The notes below the pieces were generated by a model. That model made no database searches, was not told the DNA's origin, and saw only the letters and a list, made by a program, of their open reading frames with translations. The position numbers and the translations under genes are program-made. Source: an uncultured Bacteroidia bacterium (GTDB lineage: Bacteria; CAIWAD01; BS150m-G50). Taken from it: a DNA stretch of 64,000 nucleotides. Positions 3,211 through 62,433 of this stretch are shown piece by piece. Position 1 is the stretch's first letter. Every line of letters begins with the position of its first letter. The stretch lies in contig CAZFEC010000004.1 of NCBI GenBank assembly GCA_964517435.1, positions 22,608 to 86,607 of the forward strand. Reading direction: 5' to 3'.

Positions 3211-4584
3211 TCAGTCGAAGTGGAAGTACTGAGCCAGGTTGTAGTCGAATCCTTTTGGCAGATACTCGCCGGTATCATGGTGCAGATCGTATTTCAGGTT
3301 GATCTCGCGCCGGCTCAAAGCCTGGACGGCCGCCACCGCCCGTTCTATCTCCCCGACGGTGTTGTACAATCCCAGACTGAAGCGCACCAGGCCGGGCCGG
3401 TGGGTCAGATCTCCGTCGAGTATCCGCTGGGTGAAGGCCGCCACCGTTCGCTCGTTTACATCCATCACCTTGATGATGTAGGGGTGGGCGCAGAAGCAGC
3501 CGCCGCGGGTGCCGATGCCGTGCTCGAATTCCAGAACGGCGTTGACCAGCTCGTGCGGCAGATCCTCAATCATGAGTGAGATGACTCCCAGGCGGTTGGG
3601 GGGATCCCAACCGGCGGGTTGCCCGAAGATCCGCACTTCCGGTATCTGCTCCAGTTCACTCAGGAACAGCTGCGTCAACGCTTCTTCGCTCGTTTCCAGC
3701 GTGTCGAAACCGATTTCGAGTAGTGTCTTGGCCGCTTGCGCGAGGGCGATCGCACCGATGACGTTGGGGGTACCGGCCTCCAGCCGTTCCGGAGGCGGCG
3801 CCCACATTACCCGGTCTGTCGTGACCACCTCGACGCAACCGCCTCCTTCGATCAGCGGCGCCCGGGTGGTGAAGAAGTCGTGCGGGCCCACCAGCACGCC
3901 GCTGCCGTAGGGCGCGTACATCTTGTGGCCTGAGATCGAAATGAAATCGATCCCGCTGGCGGACATATCGATCGCCTTGTGGGGCGCCAGCTGTGCCGCG
4001 TCGAGGTGGAGCAGCGTATCGTAACCATGCACGATTTCAGCGATATGATCGTAGTCCGGTACCGTACCGGTGATGTTGGAAGCGCCGGTGACGGAAACCA
4101 GTTTGACGGCGGCGCCTTCCTGCGCCAACAGCCGTTCCAGGAAATCGAGATCGAAGGTGCCGTAGCTGTCCACCGGAATCCGGACCACCTCGGCGATATC
4201 ACGCCAGGGCAGGTCGTTGGCGTGATGCTCAGCCTCCGTGATGACCACTTTGTCCCCGGGCAGCTCCTGGGCGTAGTGCGCCAGCATGTTGATCGATTCG
4301 GTCGCGTTGCGGGTGAAGGCTACTATGGCATTGTCGGGAGCGCCGAGAAAGCCGCGAATGATCTCCCGCGCTTCCTCGAAAATGTGGGTGGCGAGGCGTG
4401 ATTTAAAACCGGAACCGCGATGAATACTGGCATAGTGGGGAATGAACTCCTCCAGCTTCGCCTGCACCGACTTCAACGCCGGTGTCGAAGCGCCGTTGTC
4501 GAGGTAGACATACGGCACCCGGCGGCCATCGGGCAGCGTAACGGTGCTGCCGTTGCCGACCACAATACTGCTCAGATCCTGCAA
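3211..4584 (-). CDS. Aminotransferase class V / cysteine desulfurase-like PLP enzyme
   Basis: 457 aa. A 'SGHKMYAPYGSGVL' PLP-lysine region is typical of the SufS/CsdA fold. Confidence 0.75.
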   Translation of the reverse strand: MQDLSSIVVGNGSTVTLPDGRRVPYVYLDNGASTPALKSVQAKLEEFIPHYASIHRGSGFKSRLATHIFEEAREIIRGFLGAPDNAIVAFTRNATESINMLAHYAQELPGDKVVITEAEHHANDLPWRDIAEVVRIPVDSYGTFDLDFLERLLAQEGAAVKLVSVTGASNITGTVPDYDHIAEIVHGYDTLLHLDAAQLAPHKAIDMSASGIDFISISGHKMYAPYGSGVLVGPHDFFTTRAPLIEGGGCVEVVTTDRVMWAPPPERLEAGTPNVIGAIALAQAAKTLLEIGFDTLETSEEALTQLFLSELEQIPEVRIFGQPAGWDPPNRLGVISLMIEDLPHELVNAVLEFEHGIGTRGGCFCAHPYIIKVMDVNERTVAAFTQRILDGDLTHRPGLVRFSLGLYNTVGEIERAVAAVQALSRREINLKYDLHHDTGEYLPKGFDYNLAQYFHFD

Positions 4585-5771
4585 GATTCTTCCTGACTGT
4601 TATCCCTTTTGACTCTCTGTGCACGGGTGTGGAACCGCCGCATCTCCGCCAGCAGGCGGTCGTTCTCCTCCGGGAGACCGATGGTGATACGCAGGCACTG
4701 CGGCAGGCCGAATGCCTGCAGGGGGCGCAGAATGATTCCCTGATGCAACATGTAATCATTCAGCCGTTCCATGGCGGTTTCGTCGCGGCAGACCAGGGTC
4801 ACAAAGTTGGCGGCGCTGTCCAGAATCTCCAGATCCAGCAGGCGCAACTCCCGTGATACCCGTACTATTTCGGTGCTGTTATTGTCGAGTACGCGCCGCA
4901 GGAAGTCGGTGTCGTCCAGTGCGGCTATGGCAGCGGCTTGAGCCGGAATGCTCGGTTCGAAAGGCAACTTGACTTTCATCAGACTGGCGATCAGCGACTC
5001 CTCCGCGAAGCCGTAACCAACGCGCAGCCCGGCCAGACCGTACGCCTTGGAGAAGGTACGCAGGGTGATGACATTGTCGTAGCGGTAAAGCAACGAATCG
5101 GAATAGTCCGGTTTGACGTCGGCGTATTCGAAGTAGGCTTCGTCCAGGATCACCAGCACATTCTCCGGTATCCGTGCGTAGAAAGTGTCGAACTCCTCGC
5201 CACTGAACCAGGAGCCGGTCGGATTGTTGGGATTGGCCAGGTAGATGATCTTGGTGCGGGGATTGATGGCGGCGGCAATCGCCTCCAGGTCATAGCGATA
5301 GTCGCGCAGCGGTATCTGGCGCAGCTTGACGCCACGCGAGTTGACCAGCACGTAGATGCCGATGAAGGAGCCGGCCGAGGTCAGCACCTCTTCGTCGTCG
5401 AAGAGAAAAGTCCGTATAATATTGGCCATGATCCCTTCGGATCCGCTGCCGATGATGACATTATCCGGCTCGACCTGAAAGCGTTCAGCCAGTTTGCGCC
5501 GCAGCTTGTAGCCGCCGATCTCGGGATAGCGGTGCGCCTCCGTCAACGACTCGCAGGCTGCTTTGACAGCCGCTTGCGAAGGCCCCAGCGGATTTTCGTT
5601 GGAAGCGAGTTTGATGATATTATCGAGCCCCAGTTCCCGGCGTACTTCGTCGATCGGTTTCCCCGGTCGGTAGGGAATCAGGTCGGATATGTTCTGCGGT
5701 GTCAGCGGTCTCAGGCTTTCCCCCAGGTTACGTTTTGGCGAAAAGTTAGGGTCTGGACCGGAAAGTTCCAA
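4572..5771 (-). CDS. hisC: Histidinol-phosphate aminotransferase
   Basis: Contains the 'LASNENPLGPS' and 'LIPYRPG' signature regions. 399 aa. Confidence 0.85.
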   Translation of the reverse strand: MELSGPDPNFSPKRNLGESLRPLTPQNISDLIPYRPGKPIDEVRRELGLDNIIKLASNENPLGPSQAAVKAACESLTEAHRYPEIGGYKLRRKLAERFQVEPDNVIIGSGSEGIMANIIRTFLFDDEEVLTSAGSFIGIYVLVNSRGVKLRQIPLRDYRYDLEAIAAAINPRTKIIYLANPNNPTGSWFSGEEFDTFYARIPENVLVILDEAYFEYADVKPDYSDSLLYRYDNVITLRTFSKAYGLAGLRVGYGFAEESLIASLMKVKLPFEPSIPAQAAAIAALDDTDFLRRVLDNNSTEIVRVSRELRLLDLEILDSAANFVTLVCRDETAMERLNDYMLHQGIILRPLQAFGLPQCLRITIGLPEENDRLLAEMRRFHTRAQRVKRDNSQEESCRI

Positions 5772-5796
5772 CTCACTCCTGTGCGGCGGTGATGAT

Positions 5797-5828
5797 AAAA
5801 AAACCCGGAAGGAGGGATCTCTTCCGGG
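5797..5828 (-). terminator. Intrinsic-terminator-like hairpin (CCCGGAAG-loop-CTTCCGGG followed by a T7 run on the − strand)
   Basis: An 8-bp GC stem plus a U-tract read on the − strand. It lies only about 25 nt upstream of the hisC start, so it may be leaky or act as an attenuator. Confidence 0.5.
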
Positions 5829-6043
5829 TGCGGCTAATTGAAAGACGAACTCCTACACAGCCAGAGTCCATCGAAGAGGGATAGTCCTTTATGGTTCACA
5901 CTGCCGCGGATGACTGGACTACTCCACCCGGGCAGCCATTACCTCCCGTGATATCCCGGTTGCACCGGACCGCTACCGCCGCGGCCGGTACCGGGGAGCG
6001 TGCCGGGGACGAACCCCGGCCGCTCCTCGTCCCGGAGTCAGGC

Positions 6044-6169
6044 TTAAATCAGAACCAGCAGGAGTAGAAACAACAGGAACAACGGTGACGACATGATGAG
6101 CATTGGAATGCTGACCCACTTCGTCTCGGTCCAGGCGCGCCTACGGTTTACTAACGTTGTCGCGCTCAT
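6044..6169 (-). CDS. Unannotated 41-aa small membrane peptide (MSATTLVNRRRAWTETKWVSIPMLIMSSPLFLLFLLLLVLI)
   Basis: An ATG is preceded by GAGAGGAGG with a 4–5 nt spacer. The N-terminus is basic and the C-terminus is a transmembrane helix. A TAA stop follows. It was too short for the ORF track. Confidence 0.4.
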   Translation of the reverse strand: MSATTLVNRRRAWTETKWVSIPMLIMSSPLFLLFLLLLVLI

Positions 6170-6793
6170 GTTGCCTCCTCTCTACCGTTGCTGATAGTGG
6201 TGAGAGTGATACCACCCTCCCCTGGCAGCTGGTCGCGTCGGCCCGTTCGTCCAGGTAGCATAGACCAAGTCCTTCTGTCGCTGCCAAACAGTTGGATTTG
6301 GCGGAAAGTGATGGCATACTGGCCTTGCATGCGGACGGTGTCGTGAGGGGAGGGTCGGTCTCTGGTTTCCTTCCTGTCCAGAAGGCCTTCCAATTCGGAA
6401 GGATGTGTCAGGTACCCACAGTACCGGAAGCACCGTTGATCATACCATTTTGATTTTAACCGTGTGCTGAATCATACCGTACAGAAAAAATCATTTTCGT
6501 CAGTAAAATCACTTCCAAAATATATCAAGCAAAGAGCGTGCCATATCGAATATGTAATATTATATTATTAACATAGGGAATATAAGACAACATCTGCAAA
6601 TATGCTGAAGCAGGAATCGAGGGCTATAATCGCGGAAACTGTTCAACGGTGCCAAATTCTGACCAAAGAGTGCCAGATGCTGATTGACAACTGGAAACCT
6701 CAAAAACAGTTGCAGGATCACCGGCGGGAATCTACATTTTGAGTTATGCTCATTCAGAATGTCTATCTTCAAAGGTACGGCGAGCATAACTTC

Positions 6794-6852
6794 ATAGTAT
6801 TTCCCGAAATACTATTATACTGGTAGGGCAGTTTAACTGGGAAATACTATAT
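6794..6852. promoter_or_regulatory. Inverted-repeat element ATAGTATTTCCC|GAAATACTAT plus a distal GGGAAATACTATA half-site (locus A of a 3-locus family)
   Basis: A perfect 10-bp inverted repeat with a 2-nt spacer. A second right half sits about 33 nt downstream. The element lies in the AT-rich region about 200 nt upstream of trxA. Confidence 0.5.
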
Positions 6853-7044
6853 CGCTTCAGAGGGGTTGAGATAAGGCACATCCAGTGTAATCCGCTATCT
6901 ACCCGGTTTTGCTTCGCTCTGATTGATACCGGGCGGCCCTCGTCCATCCTTGAAACCGCGCGAGGTGCGGAGTGATTTCACTCCGTATCGCTTCAGGTCT
7001 GCGCGTCGGCGGGCAATATCGATCGATAATAACTGGAGGGGGAA

Positions 7045-7365
7045 ATGAACGATATAACGGAAAGCACTTTCGCCGCGGAGGTACTGGAAGCCGGGCAACC
7101 GGTCCTGGTCGATTTCTGGGCGCCCTGGTGCGCTCCCTGCAAGGCAATGGCGCCCGTCCTGAAAGAAATCGCTGCCCACTTTGGCAAGCGGCTTAAAATC
7201 TGCAAACTCAACACGGATGAAAGCATGCAGATACCGGCGCAATACGGTATCCGCGGCATACCCACCCTGATCCTGTTCAAAGAGGGTGAAGTTATGGAGA
7301 GGATTGTCGGCGTTCGCCCCCGCCAATTCCTGGAAGAAACTATAGAGCAATACCTGGAGGAATGA
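7045..7365 (+). CDS. trxA: Thioredoxin
   Basis: 106 aa with a 'WAPWCAPCK' active site. Confidence 0.9.
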   Translation: MNDITESTFAAEVLEAGQPVLVDFWAPWCAPCKAMAPVLKEIAAHFGKRLKICKLNTDESMQIPAQYGIRGIPTLILFKEGEVMERIVGVRPRQFLEETIEQYLEE

Positions 7366-7721
7366 TGGGGCTGTTCAGTAAACTCTTCAACAAGGGTCAG
7401 CGGCCGGAGGAACTGGACGATTCCACGATCGACGCGGCAATCGCGGCCACGCATGAAAAACCGCTGCTGCTGCAATTCTTCTCCGATACCTGTCCCCCCT
7501 GCCGGGTGATGTCCGGTGTCGTGCGCGAACTCCAGCAACAGATGCCGGATAAGATCACCGTCGCCAGGGCGAATGTCTCCTATTCGGTGGAACACGCCGG
7601 CCGCTTCGCCATCCAGTCGGTCCCCACGGTCCTGATCTTCCGGCAGGGCAGGATGGTGAACCGCATCACCGGCCTGTTGCCGCTGGATCAATTGAAAGCG
7701 CGCGTCCAGGCGTACGTTTAA
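7362..7721 (+). CDS. Thioredoxin-family protein (CPPC active site)
   Basis: 119 aa with an 'FFSDTCPPCRVM' motif. Its start overlaps the trxA stop (ATGA). Confidence 0.7.
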   Translation: MMGLFSKLFNKGQRPEELDDSTIDAAIAATHEKPLLLQFFSDTCPPCRVMSGVVRELQQQMPDKITVARANVSYSVEHAGRFAIQSVPTVLIFRQGRMVNRITGLLPLDQLKARVQAYV

Positions 7722-7735
7722 CCTTAAGATAGCTG

Positions 7736-9073
7736 ATGTCAGGTTCTGTTTCGAAAGCTCCCGTGATCGTAATCGGCGCTTCGGCGGCGGGAATGGCTGC
7801 GGCGGTGGCGGCCAGACGTGCCGCGCCGGAACAGGAGATCATCCTCCTGGAACGCCTGCCGTACTATGCTTTCGCCAGCTGCGGACTGCCGGAAGTCATC
7901 AGCGGGCGTTTGAACGACATCAGCCCTCTCCTCCAACGCGATCCCTCACAACTGGGTGCCCGCTATGGACTCACCGTGCTGCTGCGGCACGAAGCGGTGC
8001 GGATCCAGCCGGGTCGACGCCGGGTCACCGTTCGCAATCTGGCGCGCGGCACGGAGGAGGAATTTGAATACGCGACGCTGATCCTCGCCACCGGCGCCCG
8101 TCCCGCAGTCCCGGAGCGCGCCGGTTTCCATATCCTCCGCTATCCGCATGAGCTGGAACCATTGCTGCCGCAGCTGCGCGATGACAGTTGCTCCCGGGTG
8201 CATGTCTCGGGCGGCGGCGCGCTGGGATTGACCCTGGTGGATGCCCTGCTGCGCCTGGGCAGGGAGGTGCACCTCTACGCGCGGGATGGGCTCCTGACCG
8301 ATTTCCCGCCGGAGATAACCCTGCCGTTGACGGCGCAGCTGGTGGAACGGGGAGTGATTCTGGAGCAGCGTCAACCCGCTCCCCCCGGCACGGGCGGCGA
8401 ACTGACCCTGCTGGCGCACGGCATTCAACCCTATCTGCCGGCCGGCCTGCAGGTCAATCCCGGCTGGCGGCAGGGAGTGCCAGTCGATCAGCAGTGTCGC
8501 ACCGAGGTGGCTTCCATTCTGGCCTGCGGCGAATGCACCCTCAGGCGGGAAGGGGGGCGGCTGACGCGCTGGACGAGCGGCGCGGCGGCGGCCAACCGCC
8601 AGGGCAAAGTTGCCGGTCGTAACGCGGTGGGAGGCAACGAACACTATCACGGTGTTCACGCCGTTCTGATCACCGTAGCCGGCTGGCAGATCGGACGGGC
8701 CGGTCTTTCCCTGCCCCGGCTCAAGCAGCTGTCGCGGCGACCGGCCACGGTCAGCGGCAGTTTCCGCCTTCGACCGGCCTGGCTAGATGAACGCGAGCTG
8801 TTTATGCGTTTGGATTTTGAACCGATTTCCGGTAAACTGCTGTCGTGCCACGCTTTTGGCCAAAGCGGAGTGCCGGAACGTATCAACCAGATGGCGGGCT
8901 GGCTGCAGGCGGGCGTGTCGCTTCACCAGTTGCACAACCTGGTCCACGCCTATCATCCGGAGTTTTCCGCCCTGACCGATCCCCTGGCCGCCCTGCTGGC
9001 GAAAGCGGACCAGGTAGCACGCCGAGGACGCGAACAGTTGACAACAGTGCCGAGGAATGGTCATGAAAGATAA
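7736..9073 (+). CDS. FAD-dependent pyridine nucleotide-disulfide oxidoreductase (CoA-disulfide reductase / NADH oxidase family)
   Basis: An N-terminal 'VIVIGASAAGMAAA' FAD-binding region. A single redox Cys sits in 'FASCGLP'. 445 aa. Confidence 0.75.
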   Translation: MSGSVSKAPVIVIGASAAGMAAAVAARRAAPEQEIILLERLPYYAFASCGLPEVISGRLNDISPLLQRDPSQLGARYGLTVLLRHEAVRIQPGRRRVTVRNLARGTEEEFEYATLILATGARPAVPERAGFHILRYPHELEPLLPQLRDDSCSRVHVSGGGALGLTLVDALLRLGREVHLYARDGLLTDFPPEITLPLTAQLVERGVILEQRQPAPPGTGGELTLLAHGIQPYLPAGLQVNPGWRQGVPVDQQCRTEVASILACGECTLRREGGRLTRWTSGAAAANRQGKVAGRNAVGGNEHYHGVHAVLITVAGWQIGRAGLSLPRLKQLSRRPATVSGSFRLRPAWLDERELFMRLDFEPISGKLLSCHAFGQSGVPERINQMAGWLQAGVSLHQLHNLVHAYHPEFSALTDPLAALLAKADQVARRGREQLTTVPRNGHER

Positions 9074-9485
9074 ACTGCACGCCATCCAATCCGCTTCCCG
9101 CCTGACCGGAGTGCCGATCGAAGAGATCCGCGACTACGAGAAGGAGGGACTGCTGATACCCCATGTCGCGGCTTCCGGCCGGCGCTGGTTTACCGACAAC
9201 GATCTGCAGAAGATCCGCAGCATTCGGGAACTGCTCCGCCGCGGTAAAACCTTCAATGACATCCTGCGCCTGGCCGCGCTGATTCCCTGCTGGAGTTTTC
9301 CCAAATGTCACCAGCGCGACAAGATCCAGGCTGCCTGCGAGGCGAAGCAGGACTTTCTGCAGCCCTGCTGGATCCTGACCAAGGAACAGCACAACCCGGA
9401 CCAGGAATGCCGTCTCTGTGAAGTCTACCAGCGCATTGAAGACTTCGCGGACCTCAATACCCTGCTGCCGCCGAGCAGCATCTAG
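9057..9485 (+). CDS. MerR-family transcriptional regulator with Cys-rich C-terminal domain
   Basis: An N-terminal HTH 'LTGVPIEEIRDYEKEGLLIP'. The C-terminal half carries about 8 Cys (CW, KCH, AAC, QPC, ECRLC). Confidence 0.6.
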   Translation: MVMKDKLHAIQSASRLTGVPIEEIRDYEKEGLLIPHVAASGRRWFTDNDLQKIRSIRELLRRGKTFNDILRLAALIPCWSFPKCHQRDKIQAACEAKQDFLQPCWILTKEQHNPDQECRLCEVYQRIEDFADLNTLLPPSSI

Positions 9486-9584
9486 CCCGACCACCCCCCC
9501 GCAACCAGCGTTGTCCCGGTGCGGGGGAGCGTTGACTTTCGCCCGCCGCCAAAGTAGGTTATGGTCAAACTCAAGTAGGATGAG

Positions 9585-10265
9585 ATGCTGCAGCTGACTG
9601 TACTGATAGTTATCGCTTACCTGCTCGGTTCGATTCCCACCAGCATTCTGGTGGTAAAGGGGATCAAGCGGGTGGATATCCGCGATTACGGCTCCGGTAA
9701 TGCGGGCGGAACCAACGTCGGCCGGGTGCTGGGGTGGAAATGGGCCGTGCTGGTGATTCTGGTGGATGCCCTCAAAGGCTGGCTGGCGGCGGCGGTGCTG
9801 CCGCTGTTCTTTCCCGGTACGCCTCTGGCCGCCGATCCCGGCTTCAGCAGTGTGATCGCCGGTGTGGCCGCCATGCTGGGGCATGTCTTTCCCCTTTTCG
9901 CCGGTTTCCGGGGCGGGAAGGGCGTGGCCACCGCGGCCGGCATCGCCATCGGTGTCTCGCAACCGTACTGGGTGATTCTGGCCGCACTCGGTCTCTTCGG
10001 GATCGTGCTGCTGAGCACCCGCTACATGTTCCTGGCTTCGATCAGCGGTGGCATCGCCTATGCCGTTCTGATCCATTTCTTTGCGGCGGCGGAAGCCGTC
10101 AGCCTGCGTATTTTCGCCATCGCCTGCGCGCTCCTGCTGATCATCCTGCATTACCGCAACATCGGCCGCTGGCGCCGGGGGGTGGAAAACCGCATCAGCC
10201 GCAAGTTGACCCCTGTTAGGCCTGCAATTGAGGACGAACCGCAAACAGGAGCTGAAGATGAGTGA
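9585..10265 (+). CDS. plsY: Glycerol-3-phosphate acyltransferase PlsY
   Basis: Contains 'GSGNAGGTN'. It is a polytopic membrane protein of 226 aa. Confidence 0.9.
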   Translation: MLQLTVLIVIAYLLGSIPTSILVVKGIKRVDIRDYGSGNAGGTNVGRVLGWKWAVLVILVDALKGWLAAAVLPLFFPGTPLAADPGFSSVIAGVAAMLGHVFPLFAGFRGGKGVATAAGIAIGVSQPYWVILAALGLFGIVLLSTRYMFLASISGGIAYAVLIHFFAAAEAVSLRIFAIACALLLIILHYRNIGRWRRGVENRISRKLTPVRPAIEDEPQTGAEDE

Positions 10266-11265
10266 TCCGACCAGAATCGCAGTGATAGGCGGTGGCAGTT
10301 TCGGAGCCACCCTGGCCATTCTGCTGCAGGAAAATGGACACACCGTCCGACTCTGGGAGTACCTGGAGGAGGAAATCGCCAAGTACGAGTCGGGCAACCG
10401 GGAAGTGGCGGTTCTGCCCGGCGTTTTTCTGCCGGAGACGATGTTCGTCAGCAACGACCTGCCGGAAGTGGTGCGGGGAGCCGAATTGATCCTGCTGGCG
10501 GTGCCGTCGCACGCCGTGCGCCCGATGGCGGCCCGGCTGAACGAGTTCGTCGACTGGGATCCCCTGCTGGTCTGCGTGGCGAAAGGAATCGAGGAGAACA
10601 CCCTGCTGCGGATGTCGGAACTGATCTCCACAGTATTCCCGGCGCTGCCCGCGGGCAAGCATGTCTGCCTGTCCGGACCCTCCCACGCCGAGGAAGTTTC
10701 GCGCCACATCCCCACCGCCGTCGTCGCCGCCTCCCGGGAGATGGCGTCAGCGGCCCGGGTCCAGGAAATCTTCTCGACCGAGTACTTCCGCGTCTACACC
10801 AACGACGACCTCGCCGGCGTCGAGGTGGGTGGTTCGGTCAAGAATGTAATCGCGCTGGCGGCGGGTATCTGCGACGGTCTCGGCTTCGGCGACAATACCA
10901 AGGGGGCGCTGCTCAACCGCGGCCTGGTCGAGATCGGCCGGCTGGGAATGCAGATGGGCGCCCGGCGGGATACTTTCTTCGGTCTGTCCGGTATGGGCGA
11001 TCTGATCACGACCTGTATGAGCCGCCATTCCCGGAACCGTTTCGTCGGCGAGGAGATCGGTAAGGGACGCAAGCTGCCGGAAATCCTGGACAGCATGCAG
11101 ATGGTGGCGGAGGGTGTCAAGACCACCCGGTCGGTCAATGATCTGATGCAACGCCATGAGATCGATATGCCCATTTCTCATTCGGTATACAGGATCCTGT
11201 TCGAGGAGATCGATCCCGGACAGGAGGTAACCGACCTGATGAAGCGAAAACTTAAACAGGAGTAG
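10258..11265 (+). CDS. gpsA: NAD(P)H-dependent glycerol-3-phosphate dehydrogenase
   Basis: Contains 'IAVIGGGSFGATLA'. An AGGAG SD precedes the ATG at 10258. The track's earlier start at 10228 is less likely. Confidence 0.9.
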   Translation: MSDPTRIAVIGGGSFGATLAILLQENGHTVRLWEYLEEEIAKYESGNREVAVLPGVFLPETMFVSNDLPEVVRGAELILLAVPSHAVRPMAARLNEFVDWDPLLVCVAKGIEENTLLRMSELISTVFPALPAGKHVCLSGPSHAEEVSRHIPTAVVAASREMASAARVQEIFSTEYFRVYTNDDLAGVEVGGSVKNVIALAAGICDGLGFGDNTKGALLNRGLVEIGRLGMQMGARRDTFFGLSGMGDLITTCMSRHSRNRFVGEEIGKGRKLPEILDSMQMVAEGVKTTRSVNDLMQRHEIDMPISHSVYRILFEEIDPGQEVTDLMKRKLKQE

Positions 11266-50248: not shown

Positions 50249-50464
50249 CCCTCTCCCGGGTATGATCCCCGCTGTCTCGTGTTCTGTATCACGGCAATAC
50301 TATAATACCGGTTTCAGACGTACATTATTAGCGATCATCGGCATAGTTGTAACAAGTCCGGATTTCTATTCTATCTTGTTTACAGGACCTTGCTTGCAGG
50401 CAAGACCTTGTGCGAGGACTTGTGAACAAGGCCTGCAGCAGCCCGTTCGGACCAATCGTCCCGG

Positions 50465-57737: not shown

Positions 57738-57806
57738 ACTTCGGAATCGGTATCGAAATCGGTATCGGAATTGGAACATCGATACCGATACCGAGGCCGA
57801 ATCCCG
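57738..57806. repeat. REP-like imperfect inverted repeat built from GGTATCGGAAT / ATTCCGATACC units
   Basis: It lies between the convergent alr and ssb genes. It belongs to the same family as the repeats at 61715-61922 and 62350-62433. It could form a long hairpin, so it is probably a bidirectional terminator. Confidence 0.6.
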
Positions 57807-57925
57807 ACTATTAGCGTCCATTCGCGGTTCTTTTGATGGACTTCAGATCGAGAATAAAAAAGGCTCCCGACGGGAGCCTTTCGTTATGCGCCCAACCCTT
57901 GCACAGGGCCAGGTGAAATTCGATT

Positions 57926-57982
57926 AATAGTATTTCCCACTTAGAAGGTCCTGGTTGTTCGCAACATTTCGAGAAATACTAT
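57926..57982. promoter_or_regulatory. Inverted-repeat element ATAGTATTTCCC-N32-GAGAAATACTAT (locus B)
   Basis: It has the same half-sites and about the same spacing as loci A and C. Confidence 0.5.
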
Positions 57983-58034
57983 GAAGTGATGCTCGCGATC
58001 GCTTCTGAAGAGGGACATTTTGTATGAGCATCAC

Positions 58035-58475
58035 TCAGAACGGAATATCATCATCGTCGGCGTCGGCCGCTGCCGTCTCCGGGCTGGCGGTCTCCTTTGC
58101 CGCCGGCGGCGCGTAGACATCGGCGTTCGAGCCGCCCTCCCGCCGCTCCAGCGAGATCAGATCGTTGGCCACGATCTCCGTCTTGTAGCGCTTGGTGCCC
58201 TCTTTGTCGGTGTAGGAGTCGTAGGTGATACGCCCTTCGACATATACCAGTGAACCCTTGTGCAGGTTTCGCTCCGCGCTGTCGGCCTGGTAGCGCCACG
58301 CCTTGATGTTATGCCATTCCGTCTTTGTATCCCATTCGCCCGTTTCCCGGTTCTTGATACTGAAATCGGTAGCCATGGAAAAGGATGCCACCTTCACGCC
58401 GCTGGGAGTGGAACGGATTTCCGGATCGCGTCCCAGTCTGCCAATCAGCATTACCTTGTTAAGTGCTTTCATCAT
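58035..58475 (-). CDS. ssb: Single-stranded DNA-binding protein
   Basis: An OB fold and an acidic C-terminal 'DDDIPF'. Confidence 0.95.
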   Translation of the reverse strand: MMKALNKVMLIGRLGRDPEIRSTPSGVKVASFSMATDFSIKNRETGEWDTKTEWHNIKAWRYQADSAERNLHKGSLVYVEGRITYDSYTDKEGTKRYKTEIVANDLISLERREGGSNADVYAPPAAKETASPETAAADADDDDIPF

Positions 58476-58980: not shown

Positions 58981-60532
58981 CCGGCTCCTCTGGTGCCAGC
59001 AGGTCGCGCAGGGCCATGGGCAGAAACTCGATCAGGTCCGGCGCGGTTACAGCCAGCGCCGTCAACGCCCGCGCGGCCAGGTCGCCGGCATATCCGTGCA
59101 GCCAGATCGCCGCCGTGGCTGCGTCCGGCAGCTCCATCCCCTGTACGGCCAGGCCGCTGATAATACCGGTAAGCACATCGCCGCTGCCGGCGGTCGCCAT
59201 GCCGGCGTTACCGCTGGAGTTGAGGATGACCTCGCCCAGGGGGGAGATCACCGCCGTGGGTGCTCCCTTCAGCACCAGGGTGACGCCCATCTCCCGCGCG
59301 AACTCGACCGCCGGCTCGATCAATTGATGATAGGGAACCTCGTCCGGTTCCGCGCCGAGTAATCGCATGAACTCACCGTGGTGGGGCGTCAGGCAGACCG
59401 GCACCTTGCACTCCGTCAGCAGCTGCGGTTCCTGCGCCACCGCCCAGAGTCCGTCGGCGTCGATGACCAGGGGCAATTCCGCCCGGGTGAGCAGGGACTG
59501 CACCAGTTGTACGCTTTCCGGGTGGCGCCCCATACCGGGACCGACCATCAACAGGTCGCCCCACTCCTGGAATTGCAGGATGGAATCCAGTGCGTCGTGT
59601 GCCAGCGACTGCTGATCCGTCTCCGCGGCGGGTGAAGTCATCACCTCCGCCAGGCGACCCTCGAAAATCGGATTCAGCGAGGCGGGACAGAAGAGCATGG
59701 TCATGCCGCAACCGCTGACCAGCGTGCTGCGACAGGCCAGCATCGCCGCTCCGGTCAGGCCGCGCGAACCGGCGACGGCGATCACCTTGCCGACGGTGCC
59801 TTTGTGCGCCGACGGCGAACGGAGCGGGACCAGATAGCTGATATCCTCCGGTTCCAGCTCGAGCCAGAAATCTTCCGCCGCCAGGTCTTCCGGGTCGTAG
59901 CCGATGTGGGCGATCTCCAGCCGGCCGCAGCGCTCCCGGCCAGGCGGCAGCAGCAGACCGCGTTTGGGTGCACACATCGTGACCGTGAGATCGGCGATGA
60001 CGGCCGGTCCTTCGCAGAGACCGGTGTCGCCCGACACCCCGGAGGGGATGTCGATGGCGATCACGGTGGTGCCGCTGTCGTTGATCGCGTTGATCACCTC
60101 CGCTTCGAGTCCCCGGGCGGCGCCCTTGATGCCGGTGCCGAGCAGACCGTCGATGACGATGTCCCATTCCCGCAGGTCCGGAATCACGTCGGAGTCTTCG
60201 ATCAGCGTTATCTCGATACCGAGATTCAGCAGGATCTGCAGGTTGGTCGCGGCGCTGCCGTTGTAAGCCTCCGGCGGCGCGGTAGCGAAGACGGTCGCGG
60301 GGATCTCCTGGTGGTACAGATGCCGGGCGACTACGAATGCGTCCCCCCCGTTGTTGCCCTTACCGGCCAGGATGATGATGGAAGCGGACCCCTCCTCCTC
60401 CAGCAGGTTGATGACGGCCGCGGCGGTGCTGCGACCGGCGTTCTCCATCAACACGATATCGGGAATGCCCAGTTCGGTGACCGCTTGCCGGTCCAGCTTC
60501 TGCATCTGCTCAACGGATAGTACAGTCTTCAT
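58961..60532 (-). CDS. nnr: Bifunctional NAD(P)H-hydrate repair enzyme (epimerase + ADP-dependent dehydratase)
   Basis: YjeF-N and YjeF-C/carbohydrate-kinase domains. Start set at the ATG at 60532, preceded by GAGGAG. The track's longer N-terminal extension is unlikely. Confidence 0.85.
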   Translation of the reverse strand: MKTVLSVEQMQKLDRQAVTELGIPDIVLMENAGRSTAAAVINLLEEEGSASIIILAGKGNNGGDAFVVARHLYHQEIPATVFATAPPEAYNGSAATNLQILLNLGIEITLIEDSDVIPDLREWDIVIDGLLGTGIKGAARGLEAEVINAINDSGTTVIAIDIPSGVSGDTGLCEGPAVIADLTVTMCAPKRGLLLPPGRERCGRLEIAHIGYDPEDLAAEDFWLELEPEDISYLVPLRSPSAHKGTVGKVIAVAGSRGLTGAAMLACRSTLVSGCGMTMLFCPASLNPIFEGRLAEVMTSPAAETDQQSLAHDALDSILQFQEWGDLLMVGPGMGRHPESVQLVQSLLTRAELPLVIDADGLWAVAQEPQLLTECKVPVCLTPHHGEFMRLLGAEPDEVPYHQLIEPAVEFAREMGVTLVLKGAPTAVISPLGEVILNSSGNAGMATAGSGDVLTGIISGLAVQGMELPDAATAAIWLHGYAGDLAARALTALAVTAPDLIEFLPMALRDLLAPEEPDDSHEH

Positions 60533-60879
60533 GATTGCTCCTCGATCTGCACAACACAGGCGGCATGCGTAGCGCTGTGCGAAAGGCTGATTGCGATCGT
60601 CAGGTGCGGCGGCAAGGCCGTGCAGATAAGCCGGGGCGGTTCTCCGCCGGAGAGAATCGCCAGCTCCCTGGCCGCCGGCGCCGTCCCGATATGCTGCTGC
60701 AGCCACTCGCGCAAAAGCTGCTTCGCCAGCGCGCGCGCCGCTCGTGAACCGGCATCATTACGCAGCCGGGCGAAGTAGTCAAGCTCCACCGCGGCGAACT
60801 CGCTGTCGGGAGTCGCTACCGTGTCGATTCGGGATTGAGTGCTCAGTATGTGCCGATTCTCGAAAAGAATTCTCCTTTA
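60529..60879 (-). pseudogene. acpS: Holo-ACP synthase (AcpS)-like ORF with no canonical start and a degenerate N-terminal motif
   Basis: The C-terminal two-thirds aligns to AcpS ('ELDYF', 'HIGT', 'LTIAISLSHS…ACVVQIEE'). Only a GTG, which would remove the catalytic N-terminus, or non-canonical codons follow the in-frame TAA at about 60880. Confidence 0.45.
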
Positions 60880-60904
60880 AAACGATCACTCACGAATCGG
60901 CTTG

Positions 60905-60960
60905 TAGTATTTCTTAGCTGCTGCGAGACGTGGTGCCATTTCCTTTAGGGAAATACTATA
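60905..60960. promoter_or_regulatory. Inverted-repeat element TAGTATTTC-N34-GGGAAATACTATA (locus C)
   Basis: It lies in the intergenic region immediately upstream of the acpS-like ORF. Confidence 0.5.
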
Positions 60961-61697: not shown

Positions 61698-61714
61698 ATG
61701 CTATGTTGCGTTAT

Positions 61715-61922
61715 CGATTCCGATCCCGATTCCGAATCCCGAGATTGTTCGGCCTCGGTATCGGAATTCGGTATCGTTCCCTATTCCGACTTGTTCGGCC
61801 TCGGTATCGGAATTCGGTATCGTTCCCTATTCCGACTTGTTCGGCCTCGGTATCGGAATTCGGTACCGTTCCCTATTCCGACTTGTTCGGCCTCGGTATC
61901 GGAAATCGGTATCGTTCCTTAC
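61715..61922. repeat. 46-bp tandem repeat (~4 units: TTGTTCGGCCTCGGTATCGGAATTCGGTATCGTTCCCTATTCCGAC) with 30-bp CGATTCCGATCCCGATTCCGAATCCCGAG leader
   Basis: The periodicity is directly visible. The + strand ORF-track entries 61561..61959 and 61703..61972 are translation artefacts of this array. Confidence 0.85.
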
Positions 61923-62333
61923 TCATCCTTCTTCTAGATCAGGATTGGTTTCGCCATAAAGGATTTCACTAGCTTCACGAACAGAATAACCTCTTCCGCC
62001 CAGTCTCGTCAACATGGCAACTATCCTGTCTAGAAGCTTTTTCCCTTCATGGTTCTTCTCCGAACTGATTGCGTTATAGATTTCCAGTACATCCTGAATC
62101 GCTGCGCATTCTAACGCAGAACTCCGAGCGATCTCGAAAAACCGACGTCTGTCTCCTTCTGTAACACGTCCGTTTCCTTCTGCGATGTTTAGCGAAATCG
62201 ATAGTGATGCACGTAATAGTTGATCCTTTGCATGACGATCTGTTCCACCCAGAGTGCCGCAATGGGAGTGAACCCATGAGTTATACTTGAGCGACACTTG
62301 ATAGACATCCAATGTCTCGTGACTGAAAGCCAT
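61923..62333 (-). CDS. Four-helix-bundle protein of the 23S rRNA-IVS/Avd-like family (PF05635-type)
   Basis: 136 aa. Family-typical 'SLSISLNIAEG' and 'RRRFFEIARSSALE' regions. The gene is about 45–48% GC against a ~65% surrounding. Confidence 0.65.
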   Translation of the reverse strand: MAFSHETLDVYQVSLKYNSWVHSHCGTLGGTDRHAKDQLLRASLSISLNIAEGNGRVTEGDRRRFFEIARSSALECAAIQDVLEIYNAISSEKNHEGKKLLDRIVAMLTRLGGRGYSVREASEILYGETNPDLEEG

Positions 62334-62349
62334 AAATAAGCTCTAAGAC

Positions 62350-62433
62350 CGATTCCGATCCCGATTCCGAATCCCGAGATTGTTCGGCCTCGGTATCGGA
62401 ATTCGGTATCGTTTCTTACTCATCCTTCTTCTT
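62350..62433. repeat. Single copy of the same leader + repeat unit + shared tail as 61715-61936
   Basis: Near-identical to the 5' leader and 3' tail of the tandem array. It overlaps the last 6 codons of the MCE gene. Confidence 0.8.

Follow-up and report, generated by a model that had tools for sequence, protein, structure and literature searches.

Each of the three inverted repeats that recur in the window (the whole stretch of 64,000 nucleotides analysed here) most probably forms the first of two hairpins in a copy of an interspersed, non-coding element approximately 110 bp long. We conclude that these elements, which are small, mobile and hairpin-forming, make up a new family of interspersed repeats of the MITE, REP or PATE kind. 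The family is common to the window organism and to related uncultured genomes, its members move whole, and their insertions differ between relatives.

Anatomy of the repeat unit

An inverted repeat at three intergenic loci had been noticed in the original prediction, and the sequence bears this out. The arms are ATAGTATTTCCC-N33-GGGAAATACTAT without a mismatch at the first locus (6794–6850), ATAGTATTTCCC-N32-GAGAAATACTAT with one mismatch in the right arm at the second (57927–57982), and GTAGTATTTCTT-N32-GGGAAATACTAT with three mismatches in the left arm at the third (60904–60959). This recurrence is far above chance in shuffled sequence. All seven exact matches to the 9-mer GAAATACTA in the 64 kb fall at the three loci; allowing up to one mismatch raises the count to 14, compared with 3.0 ± 1.6 in shuffles. 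A paired-arm scan that tolerated three mismatches returned the three loci only, where 0.26 would be expected per shuffled window.

Conservation had been thought to be confined to the palindromic ends, which proved incorrect, as it continues for approximately 55 nt on one side. A repeat finder showed positions 6780–6810 to be 94% complementary to 57966–57996, a similarity that leaves the palindrome on one side, and when every half-site is read outward, all three loci show a second hairpin 3–5 nt beyond one arm. Because the similarity runs past one arm and a second hairpin is present at each locus, we define the unit as a sequence of approximately 110 bp composed of the inverted repeat, a short linker and hairpin 2. 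The inverted repeat has a stem of 11–12 bp and a loop of approximately 30 nt, in total approximately 54 bp; the outer part of the stem, ATAGTATT/AATACTAT, is conserved in sequence, while the inner three to four pairs covary freely. The linker has 3–5 nt. Hairpin 2, of approximately 48 nt and on one side only of the inverted repeat at all three loci, consists of a covarying 7–9-bp stem (GTGATGC, CCGATGC and GCGATTC types) and a loop with a conserved 3' half, GGACATTC-N4-6-GAGCATC. The unit contains no open reading frame (ORF), and the window holds three full copies and one decayed copy, as listed below with the scores of the covariance model R1 described in the next section.

6741–6850, minus strand: unit W1, full copy, inverted repeat followed by hairpin 2; R1 91.5 bits, E = 3e-18; 195 nt upstream of trxA (7045, plus strand) and pointing away from trxA
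6794–6850, no strand: W1 inverted repeat, perfect 12-bp stem ATAGTATTTCCC / GGGAAATACTAT
6804–6814, minus strand: additional W1 half-site TAGTATTTCGG on the proximal side, separated from the left arm by 2 nt
6743–6790, minus strand: W1 hairpin 2, GTTATGCTC ... AGACATTCTGAAT GAGCATAAC, with compensatory stem changes relative to W2
50281–50349, plus strand: decayed copy of the second arm type, GCAATACTAT arm and hairpin 2 lacking 12 nt; the other arm is lost
57927–58036, plus strand: unit W2, full copy, in the ssb 3' region between the convergent alr and ssb; R1 92 bits
57927–57982, no strand: W2 inverted repeat, with one C·A mismatch on the plus strand that is a G·T wobble on the minus strand
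57986–58034, plus strand: W2 hairpin 2, GTGATGCTC ... GGACATTTTGTAT GAGCATCAC
60851–60959, minus strand: unit W3, full but decayed; R1 77 bits; between the stop codon of a HAD hydrolase gene (60999) and a small ORF now called from 60789
60904–60959, no strand: W3 inverted repeat, with three A·C mismatches on the unit's strand that are G·T wobbles on the plus strand
60852–60901, minus strand: W3 hairpin 2, GCCGATTC ... GGAGAATTCTTTTCGA GAATCGGC, related to the copies in loci L007, L033 and L047

The extra proximal half-site noted earlier at the first locus is present. When the unit is read on its own strand, this half-site adjoins the 3' arm and could form an alternative short hairpin, and an imperfect equivalent (TAGTGCATTTCGGGAAATACTA / TAGTGCATTTC) is found in the subfamily-A copies of relatives. 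The interior and the hairpin of W1 resemble those of the subfamily-A copies in loci L015, L048, L131 and L140. The spacers, regarded earlier as unrelated, are indeed so among the window loci, yet each of them resembles the spacers of copies in other genomes. At the second locus, the hairpin 2 end of W2 abuts the ssb stop codon (58035–58037). At the third, the label 'acpS-like' given to the ORF at 60529–60789 has no Pfam support. The degenerate right half seen near 50292 is real and corresponds to the GCAATACTAT arm variant (50294). The segment 50281–50349, which scores under the R1 reporting threshold, aligns across the arm and hairpin 2 with a type-2 unit of the window organism upstream of topA (L002, 234–342) except for a 12-nt deletion, and we therefore regard it as a decayed fourth copy.

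Copies in related genomes

The window's own contig, of 110 kb, stems from a JGI marine metagenome and is found again in several samples. We scanned 185,579 species, each represented by a single genome, using both arms as the pattern and obtained 43 matches. The pattern was present more than once in two genomes only, JADHUQ01 (five matches) and CAZCRT01 (four matches), and the other 34 matches were single. JADHUQ01 is 'Candidatus Delongbacteria bacterium BS150m-G50' from the Black Sea; CAZCRT01 is labelled 'uncultured Bacteroidia', and the nearest named relatives of its AspRS are Delongbacteria (58–60% identity). Hairpin 2 follows the arms in all nine JADHUQ01 and CAZCRT01 loci. A covariance model, R1, built from 13 units scored true units at 42–103 bits and 58 control loci, which contain the same arms by construction, at no more than 36 bits. 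Applied to the window with filters off, R1 found exactly three full units with 92, 91.5 and 77 bits. Beyond the window, further copies are present in L002, L156 and the JADHUQ01 and CAZCRT01 loci, and the flanking genes in other genomes have no common theme. The census is small, with approximately 20 distinct units, and biased, most loci having been retrieved by the arm pattern itself. In the 22 kb around aspS of the window organism, we found no intact unit, only a diverged copy (L156, 12296–12402).

A metagenome scan with the arm pattern was dominated by an unrelated family of 75-nt perfect palindromes from gut-type samples and did not return the window's own contig; it provided five useful loci (L064, L087, L131, L140 and L144). 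Two matches in a scan of viral contigs had the wrong length and scored at most 22 bits with R1, and were hence set aside as chance. A recurrent motif beside some units, CTGAAGCGWT, showed no enrichment in the window. A search of the whole window against Rfam gave no match at the gathering score, and around the loci a relaxed limit of E = 10 yielded only noise. We found no literature on repeats in Delongbacteria. The family appears to be undescribed; as a kind, mobile interspersed repeats that are small and palindromic are well known.

Both hairpins are conserved as structures

The hairpin structure is under selection. In the alignment of 13 units, 95.9% of the cells are paired, compared with 30–50% in slid controls; changes on both sides occur in 7 of the 19 pairs, and the covariation score was reached by none of 500 shuffles. 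Compensatory base changes are present in both stems, that of the inverted repeat and that of hairpin 2. The geometry is equally constant: the span TAGTATT...AATACTA measures 52–55 bp in all 17 distinct copies, despite interiors belonging to unrelated subfamilies, and a second arm type (TTGCTG/CAGCAA, TTGCTT/AAGCAA, TTGCAG/CTGCAA, and the further variant TTGTTA/TAGCAA with one wobble) has the same geometry. In the diverged, G+C-rich copy near aspS, even the outer stem, which is otherwise invariant, has changed in a compensated way (ATAGTGT/ACACTAT), its R1 score of 31 bits lying in the range of the control loci. Folded as a single strand, intact copies adopt the two hairpins on either strand (z-scores −3.6 to −4.6; −4.5 for W1), and W3 is decayed. 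From the unrelated spacers, it had been argued that the repeat was not a conserved RNA. This argument does not hold, as the arms covary to maintain pairing, which indicates that a folded single strand, of DNA or RNA, matters.

Insertions reveal movement of whole units

Units are found inserted within one another. In L042, a 111-nt type-2 unit is nested in the hairpin 2 loop of a type-A unit, and alignment with the intact type-A units of L140, L044, L048 and L131 showed the insertion to be clean and bounded by the unit's own ends. The L042 composite recurs at a different locus in L160, indicating that the composite itself has been copied. Two loci, L042 and L044, carry a variant in which an insert of 48 nt separates the hairpins, and three to four units abut one another in L131.

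Orthologous sites differ in the presence of units. Loci L151–L155, with approximately 70% nucleotide identity to the window, share with it a common gene order from topA to folB. The ssb/alr site is empty in L151 and L152, where the 90 nt between the ssb and alr stop codons hold a terminator only; in the window, the ssb stop codon is separated by W2 from the sequence homologous to the relative's ssb/alr spacer. The HAD/small-ORF site is likewise empty in L151–L155, where an ORF of 117 amino acids begins 3 nt after the HAD stop codon. Compared with this homologue, W3 splits the small ORF approximately 11 codons in, and protein homology (56% over 105 amino acids) sets in again two codons past the end of W3, at a point 21 codons upstream of the start now called. 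At the first locus, L011 from JADHUQ01 is orthologous to window positions 3964–10716 and has a unit in the same long trxA-hisC spacer, where it belongs to another subfamily and is situated 283 nt from hisC, behind a terminator, whereas W1 is 195 nt from trxA. Elsewhere, a unit lies between cvpA and aspS in L033, and the 61-nt spacer of L159 (90% AspRS identity) is without one. No orthologous empty site was found for the decayed copy at 50281–50349, where the relative's spacer is approximately 120 nt shorter and the alignment is poor.

Taken together, the nested and ORF-disrupting insertions show that the units spread by transposition, whatever their later use. A tiny mobile element had been one of the two suggestions of the original prediction, and its mobility is upheld; the inverted repeat was misread as a pair of termini, being an internal hairpin module at one end of the element.

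Ends, strand and mode of transposition

Read on the strand that runs from hairpin 2 to the inverted repeat, the element starts at the foot of hairpin 2, and 15 of 18 units end with ...AATACTATA (ACTATA), beyond which the sequences are unrelated. Of the 11 copies from the BS150m-G50 lineage and metagenomes, 8 have TATA as their 5' flank; the flank is TTGA, CTGA, ATGT or GTAT in the older window copies and, across the older window and CAZCRT01 copies, also TATT, AATT, CATA or TGTA. The two ends, TATAGTATTTCCC and TATAGTGATGCTC, have an imperfect inverted similarity of 9–11 of 16 positions at the best of 10 offsets, with only TATAGT/ACTATA being clear.

The search for target-site duplications gave a divided answer. 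The youngest copies have TATA on both sides, so TATA may have been duplicated at their insertion; one of the two lies within the stem, however, and the pairing of the terminal TATA inside the stem marks it as part of the element rather than as a duplicated target. No duplication is evident at the nested junction, where comparison with L140 leaves at most 1 nt of ambiguity, a single event for which the intact references are paralogous rather than ancestral. At approximately 70% nucleotide identity, the flanks of W2 and W3 could not be aligned base by base with those of the relative for this purpose. A direct repeat at W3, CA(G/C)ATAC, was considered as a target duplication and rejected, as it would break the frame of the ancestral ORF.

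Mismatches in the stems are unequally distributed between the strands. On the strand from the inverted repeat to hairpin 2, the non-Watson-Crick pairs are A·C in nine cases and G·T in two, and this prevalence of A·C means that the mismatches are wobble-compatible on the complementary strand.

We tentatively propose that a Y1 HUH transposase, of the IS200/IS605 or RAYT (REP-associated) type, moves the units as a single strand. In this mechanism, units would be mobilized in trans by an enzyme that recognizes their folded single-stranded ends and acts on the strand reading hairpin 2 and then the inverted repeat. The youngest copies would have been inserted 3' of TATA with no evident target duplication, and each inserted unit would place two stable hairpins in untranslated regions and may offer outward promoter-like hexamers. 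We favor a HUH enzyme over a DDE transposase because there are no clear terminal repeats and no evident duplication, each end has a hairpin, and an A+T-rich tetranucleotide is preferred on one flank. Among the loci examined, we found neither a transposase linked to the units nor an autonomous insertion sequence with the same ends. The sole Y1 transposase gene seen (L154, 3557–4009) is not flanked by units; a phmmer search with this IS200-like protein against all ORFs of 21 family and relative loci returned only itself, and three of its closest homologues (L161–L163) have no unit nearby. A bolder version, which we consider doubtful, is that the units represent an undescribed hairpin-ended class in Delongbacteria-related members of the FCB group, with a HUH geometry unlike that of IS608 or the E. 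coli RAYT; once inserted, they might then supply bidirectional promoters and RNA hairpins in portable form and alter the expression of neighboring genes such as rplM, aspS and trxA.

The units could instead be classical MITEs with the imperfect terminal repeats TATAGT...ACTATA, moved by a TA-duplicating DDE transposase of the IS630/Tc1-mariner-like kind, which we consider unlikely. The boundaries of the youngest copies, TATAG... and ...CAC-TATA, conform to this explanation, the inverted similarity of the two ends could point to it, and the first 6–7 nt match the end of the Correia repeat TATAGTGGATTAA, which begins TATAGT (PMC5039591). Beyond 6 nt, however, the terminal similarity is weak (the 9–11 of 16 positions given above), and TATA at the hairpin 2 end is absent from the window and CAZCRT01 copies, which keep the stem-paired ...CTATA at the repeat end. 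None of the loci examined has an IS630-like gene.

Comparison with known repeat families

The units resemble REP sequences, REPINs and BIMEs in being short, extragenic and present in many copies, in having two inverted arms that pair into a hairpin around a less conserved loop and undergo compensated changes, and in their clustering, with abutting units in L131. The (A/G)TAG head of the unit arms recalls the GTAG head typical of REPs, and the adjacency of two different palindromic modules recalls the Y and Z REPs of BIMEs. In contrast, a REP is an imperfect palindrome of 20–40 nt behind GTAG and is usually G+C-rich, whereas the arms of the unit have 12 nt, are not self-complementary, are headed by ATAG (GTAG once), and are A+T-rich in a genome of 61% G+C. 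Hairpin 2 is of a different sequence class, and in the loci examined no RAYT gene flanked by units was found.

With PATEs, which derive from IS200/IS605 elements, the units appear to share the lack of clear terminal repeats and of an evident duplication (in one event), a hairpin at each end, insertion beside a short A+T-rich tetranucleotide (TATA in the youngest units), and strand-asymmetric mismatches, as expected of a single-stranded intermediate. In IS608, a guide tetranucleotide lies between the cleavage site and the hairpin, and the hairpins of PATEs are subterminal with such guides; the hairpins of the unit reach its very tips and leave no room for a guide. The two end hairpins of the unit are also unlike each other, and no autonomous insertion sequence with its ends is known.

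The Correia elements of Neisseria (CREE or NEMIS) are of a similar size class (approximately 100–155 bp), occur in numerous copies in or near promoters and gene ends, and can disrupt genes, as the units can; an end starting with TATAGT and potential outward −35/−10 hexamers at the ends are further similarities. Correia elements duplicate TA. They have 26-bp terminal inverted repeats, TATAGTGGATTAA..., of which the unit shares the first 6–7 nt only, whereas the strong inverted repeat of the unit is internal to one half and its termini match weakly. The lineages, Neisseria and a candidate phylum of the FCB group, are unrelated.

Integron attC sites, of approximately 57 bp or more, likewise have conserved inverted ends and a variable center and act as a folded single strand, but their R'' and R' cores (RYYYAAC / GTTRRRY) are absent from the units, which form no cassette arrays and have no integron integrase nearby. 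Finally, the units are like generic MITEs in being small, non-coding and dispersed, in differing in presence at orthologous sites, and in having nested insertions.

Promoter, operator and chance as alternatives

The unit might also be read as a multicopy cassette of a promoter and a small RNA or 5' leader. The GGGAAATACTAT arms would then supply a −10 region (TACTAT) on each strand, forming back-to-back promoters, and hairpin 2 would be either a stem-loop at the 5' end of the transcript or a small RNA whose loop carries the conserved GGACAUU; such a cassette would have spread by duplication or as a mobile promoter comparable to the Correia elements of Neisseria. Read outward, the arms end with TACTAT(A), which fits the hexamer TAnnnT, and in L007 the rplM start follows 21 nt after the end of the outward arm, with a ribosome-binding site in the interval. 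By eye, subfamily A has TTGAGT 17 nt upstream of TACTAT. At the other end, GGACAT/TTGACA lies 17–18 nt from the junction TATA, and a consensus scan of W1 flags TAGACA-18-CAAAAT. The stem of hairpin 2 covaries, and Correia elements are reported to make promoters at their ends (PMC2649163, PMC5039591). Against the cassette as the primary explanation, no terminator follows hairpin 2, a transcript from the W2 arm would run antisense into ssb, the −35-like hexamers vary across subfamilies, the strand bias of the wobble pairs favors the opposite strand, and there is no Rfam match; the nested and ORF-disrupting insertions show spread by transposition. We consider the cassette improbable as an explanation of the family. 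As a secondary effect, a promoter or RNA role is a possibility compatible with a mobile element, and we rate it as secondary because the −35-like hexamers are not conserved between subfamilies. Two related ideas were rejected. One was hairpin 2 as a ribosome-binding site with a start codon: NTG precedes AGCATC in approximately 9 of 16 copies, but the downstream frames are not conserved. The other was an invertible promoter, for which a spacer of 30 nt is not long enough; none of the alleles seen was inverted.

The other suggestion of the original prediction was a site for a dimeric regulator. In this reading, the arms are operator half-sites through which a dimeric or dimer-of-dimers factor jointly controls trxA, ssb and the small ORF along with other genes. 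The fixed distance of 43–44 bp between the centers of the palindromic arms, the tight 9-2-9 palindrome at the first locus, which is typical of operators, and a MerR-family gene in the trx operon (9063–9485) would suit such a factor. The sites themselves do not: in the syntenic relatives, those orthologous to two of the three loci, ssb/alr and HAD/small-ORF, are empty, and the third copy, in the trxA-hisC spacer, is displaced and of another subfamily. W2 is downstream of two convergent genes and W3 is inside an ancestral ORF, the flanking genes (trxA, hisC, ssb, alr, topA, rplM, aspS, comEB and rpsU) have no common theme, the inner bases of the arms covary within units rather than being fixed, and the adjacent hairpin of approximately 50 nt travels along. 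This makes the operator reading very improbable, and the insertion pattern indicates that the three window copies record a history of transposition rather than co-regulation of trxA, ssb and the small ORF.

Random recurrence of an AT-rich palindrome as the source of the repeats is refuted by the shuffle statistics and the covariance-model scores: the bare pattern does arise randomly in very large collections, as the 34 single matches in unrelated, mostly AT-rich genomes illustrate, but three copies within one window of 61% G+C exceed the 0.26 expected even at three mismatches, and the full units score 77–92 bits against at most 36 bits for chance loci.

Implications for genome annotation and dynamics

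For the annotation of this genome, the three sites are interspersed repeats to be masked and not a trxA/ssb regulon. Their effects on genes are local: one copy (W3) truncates a small conserved ORF, and another (W2) adds two hairpins to the 3' untranslated region of ssb. The repeat family provides a handle on the genome dynamics of an uncultured marine low-oxygen lineage, and insertion differences between co-occurring populations are possible strain markers. The structure of the ends, with no clear terminal repeats, hairpins at the tips and loops locked in length, amounts to a concrete prediction of the substrate for the transposase of the family. If the outward promoter-like hexamers are active, the units would be a second, independent case of a Correia-type 'mobile promoter', outside Neisseria.

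Derivatives and a Possible Additional Module of the Repeat

Departures from the ~110-bp unit, which consists of an inverted repeat, a short linker, and hairpin 2, were resolved at three of the compared loci:

L159 6105-6165: mini-derivative of the unit
L042 4729-4772: 48-nt palindromic insert
L044 643-692: 48-nt palindromic insert

In the mini-derivative, the hairpin-2 terminus AGCGATTC, preceded by TATATA, lies ~20 nt from the left arm, which reads GGGAAATACTAT on the opposite strand, and the element looks like an internally deleted copy in which only the two ends are retained. The insert, GCGCGGCTTTGG...CAAGRCGCGG, separates the inverted repeat from hairpin 2 in two unit copies at different loci, and could be a third, very small palindromic module.

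Other Repeat Families

A short repeat, CGATWCCGATNCCGATTCCGAA, is a family distinct from the two-hairpin unit. Its copies in the window adjoin alr and both flanks of a four-helix-bundle gene:

57740-57807: CGATWCCGATNCCGATTCCGAA repeat
61706-61742: CGATWCCGATNCCGATTCCGAA repeat
62345-62377: CGATWCCGATNCCGATTCCGAA repeat

A perfect palindrome of ~75 nt, GCGAGCAGATAGTATTTCGRCGAG...CTCGYCGAAATACTATCTGCTCGC, is likewise unrelated to the ~110-bp unit despite having the same 10-nt arm ends. This family was found at L089 1664-3721 and ~40 other metagenome loci (within L050-L143), which come from other metagenome assemblies, and a 744-kb contig carries several copies spaced 850-1150 bp apart.

Insertions in the MlaD-HAD Spacer

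Among relatives, the MlaD-HAD spacer stands out as a hot spot, and the following genes were located in it in the window and in two contigs of a syntenic relative (L154 and L155):

Window 61923-62333, minus strand: 23S_rRNA_IVP (four-helix-bundle) gene, within 61715-62413
L154 3557-4009: IS200/IS605-family Y1 transposase gene (Pfam Y1_Tnp, NCBIfam transpos_IS200)
L155 6653-8170: multihaem cytochrome gene

Perfect direct repeats of 64 nt (61715-61778 and 62350-62413) enclose the 23S_rRNA_IVP gene, which is also bordered by 46-bp tandem repeats (61745-61928). Because the MlaD-HAD distance at this site is just 84 nt in L002, a strain variant, the region is an insertion polymorphism. No ~110-bp units flank the transposase gene or the cytochrome gene.

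Surroundings of the trxA Copy and Neighboring Genes

The ~1 kb between hisC and W1, the unit copy upstream of trxA, is without a long ORF (window 5772-6740) and gave no match in Rfam. One stretch of it is rich in A+T, a G+C-rich segment closes with a terminator-like hairpin (~5800-5830), and a short patch (6451-6479) is kept in the orthologous JADHUQ01 locus. One called ORF lies within this region, and a regulator gene lies in the trxA operon:

6044-6169, minus strand: 41-aa ORF whose ribosome-binding site is strong
9063-9485: MerR-family regulator gene, last in the operon trxA / thioredoxin-like / pyridine-nucleotide-disulfide oxidoreductase

The acpS-like identity originally predicted for another ORF (window 60529-60789; 8539-8892 in the relative's contig L151) was not borne out, as neither its 86-aa nor its 117-aa form matches Pfam; a genuine ACPS gene of the window organism is situated elsewhere (L156 8588-8938). 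The MerR-family gene is the natural candidate for a regulator of the trxA operon, independent of the ~110-bp repeat.
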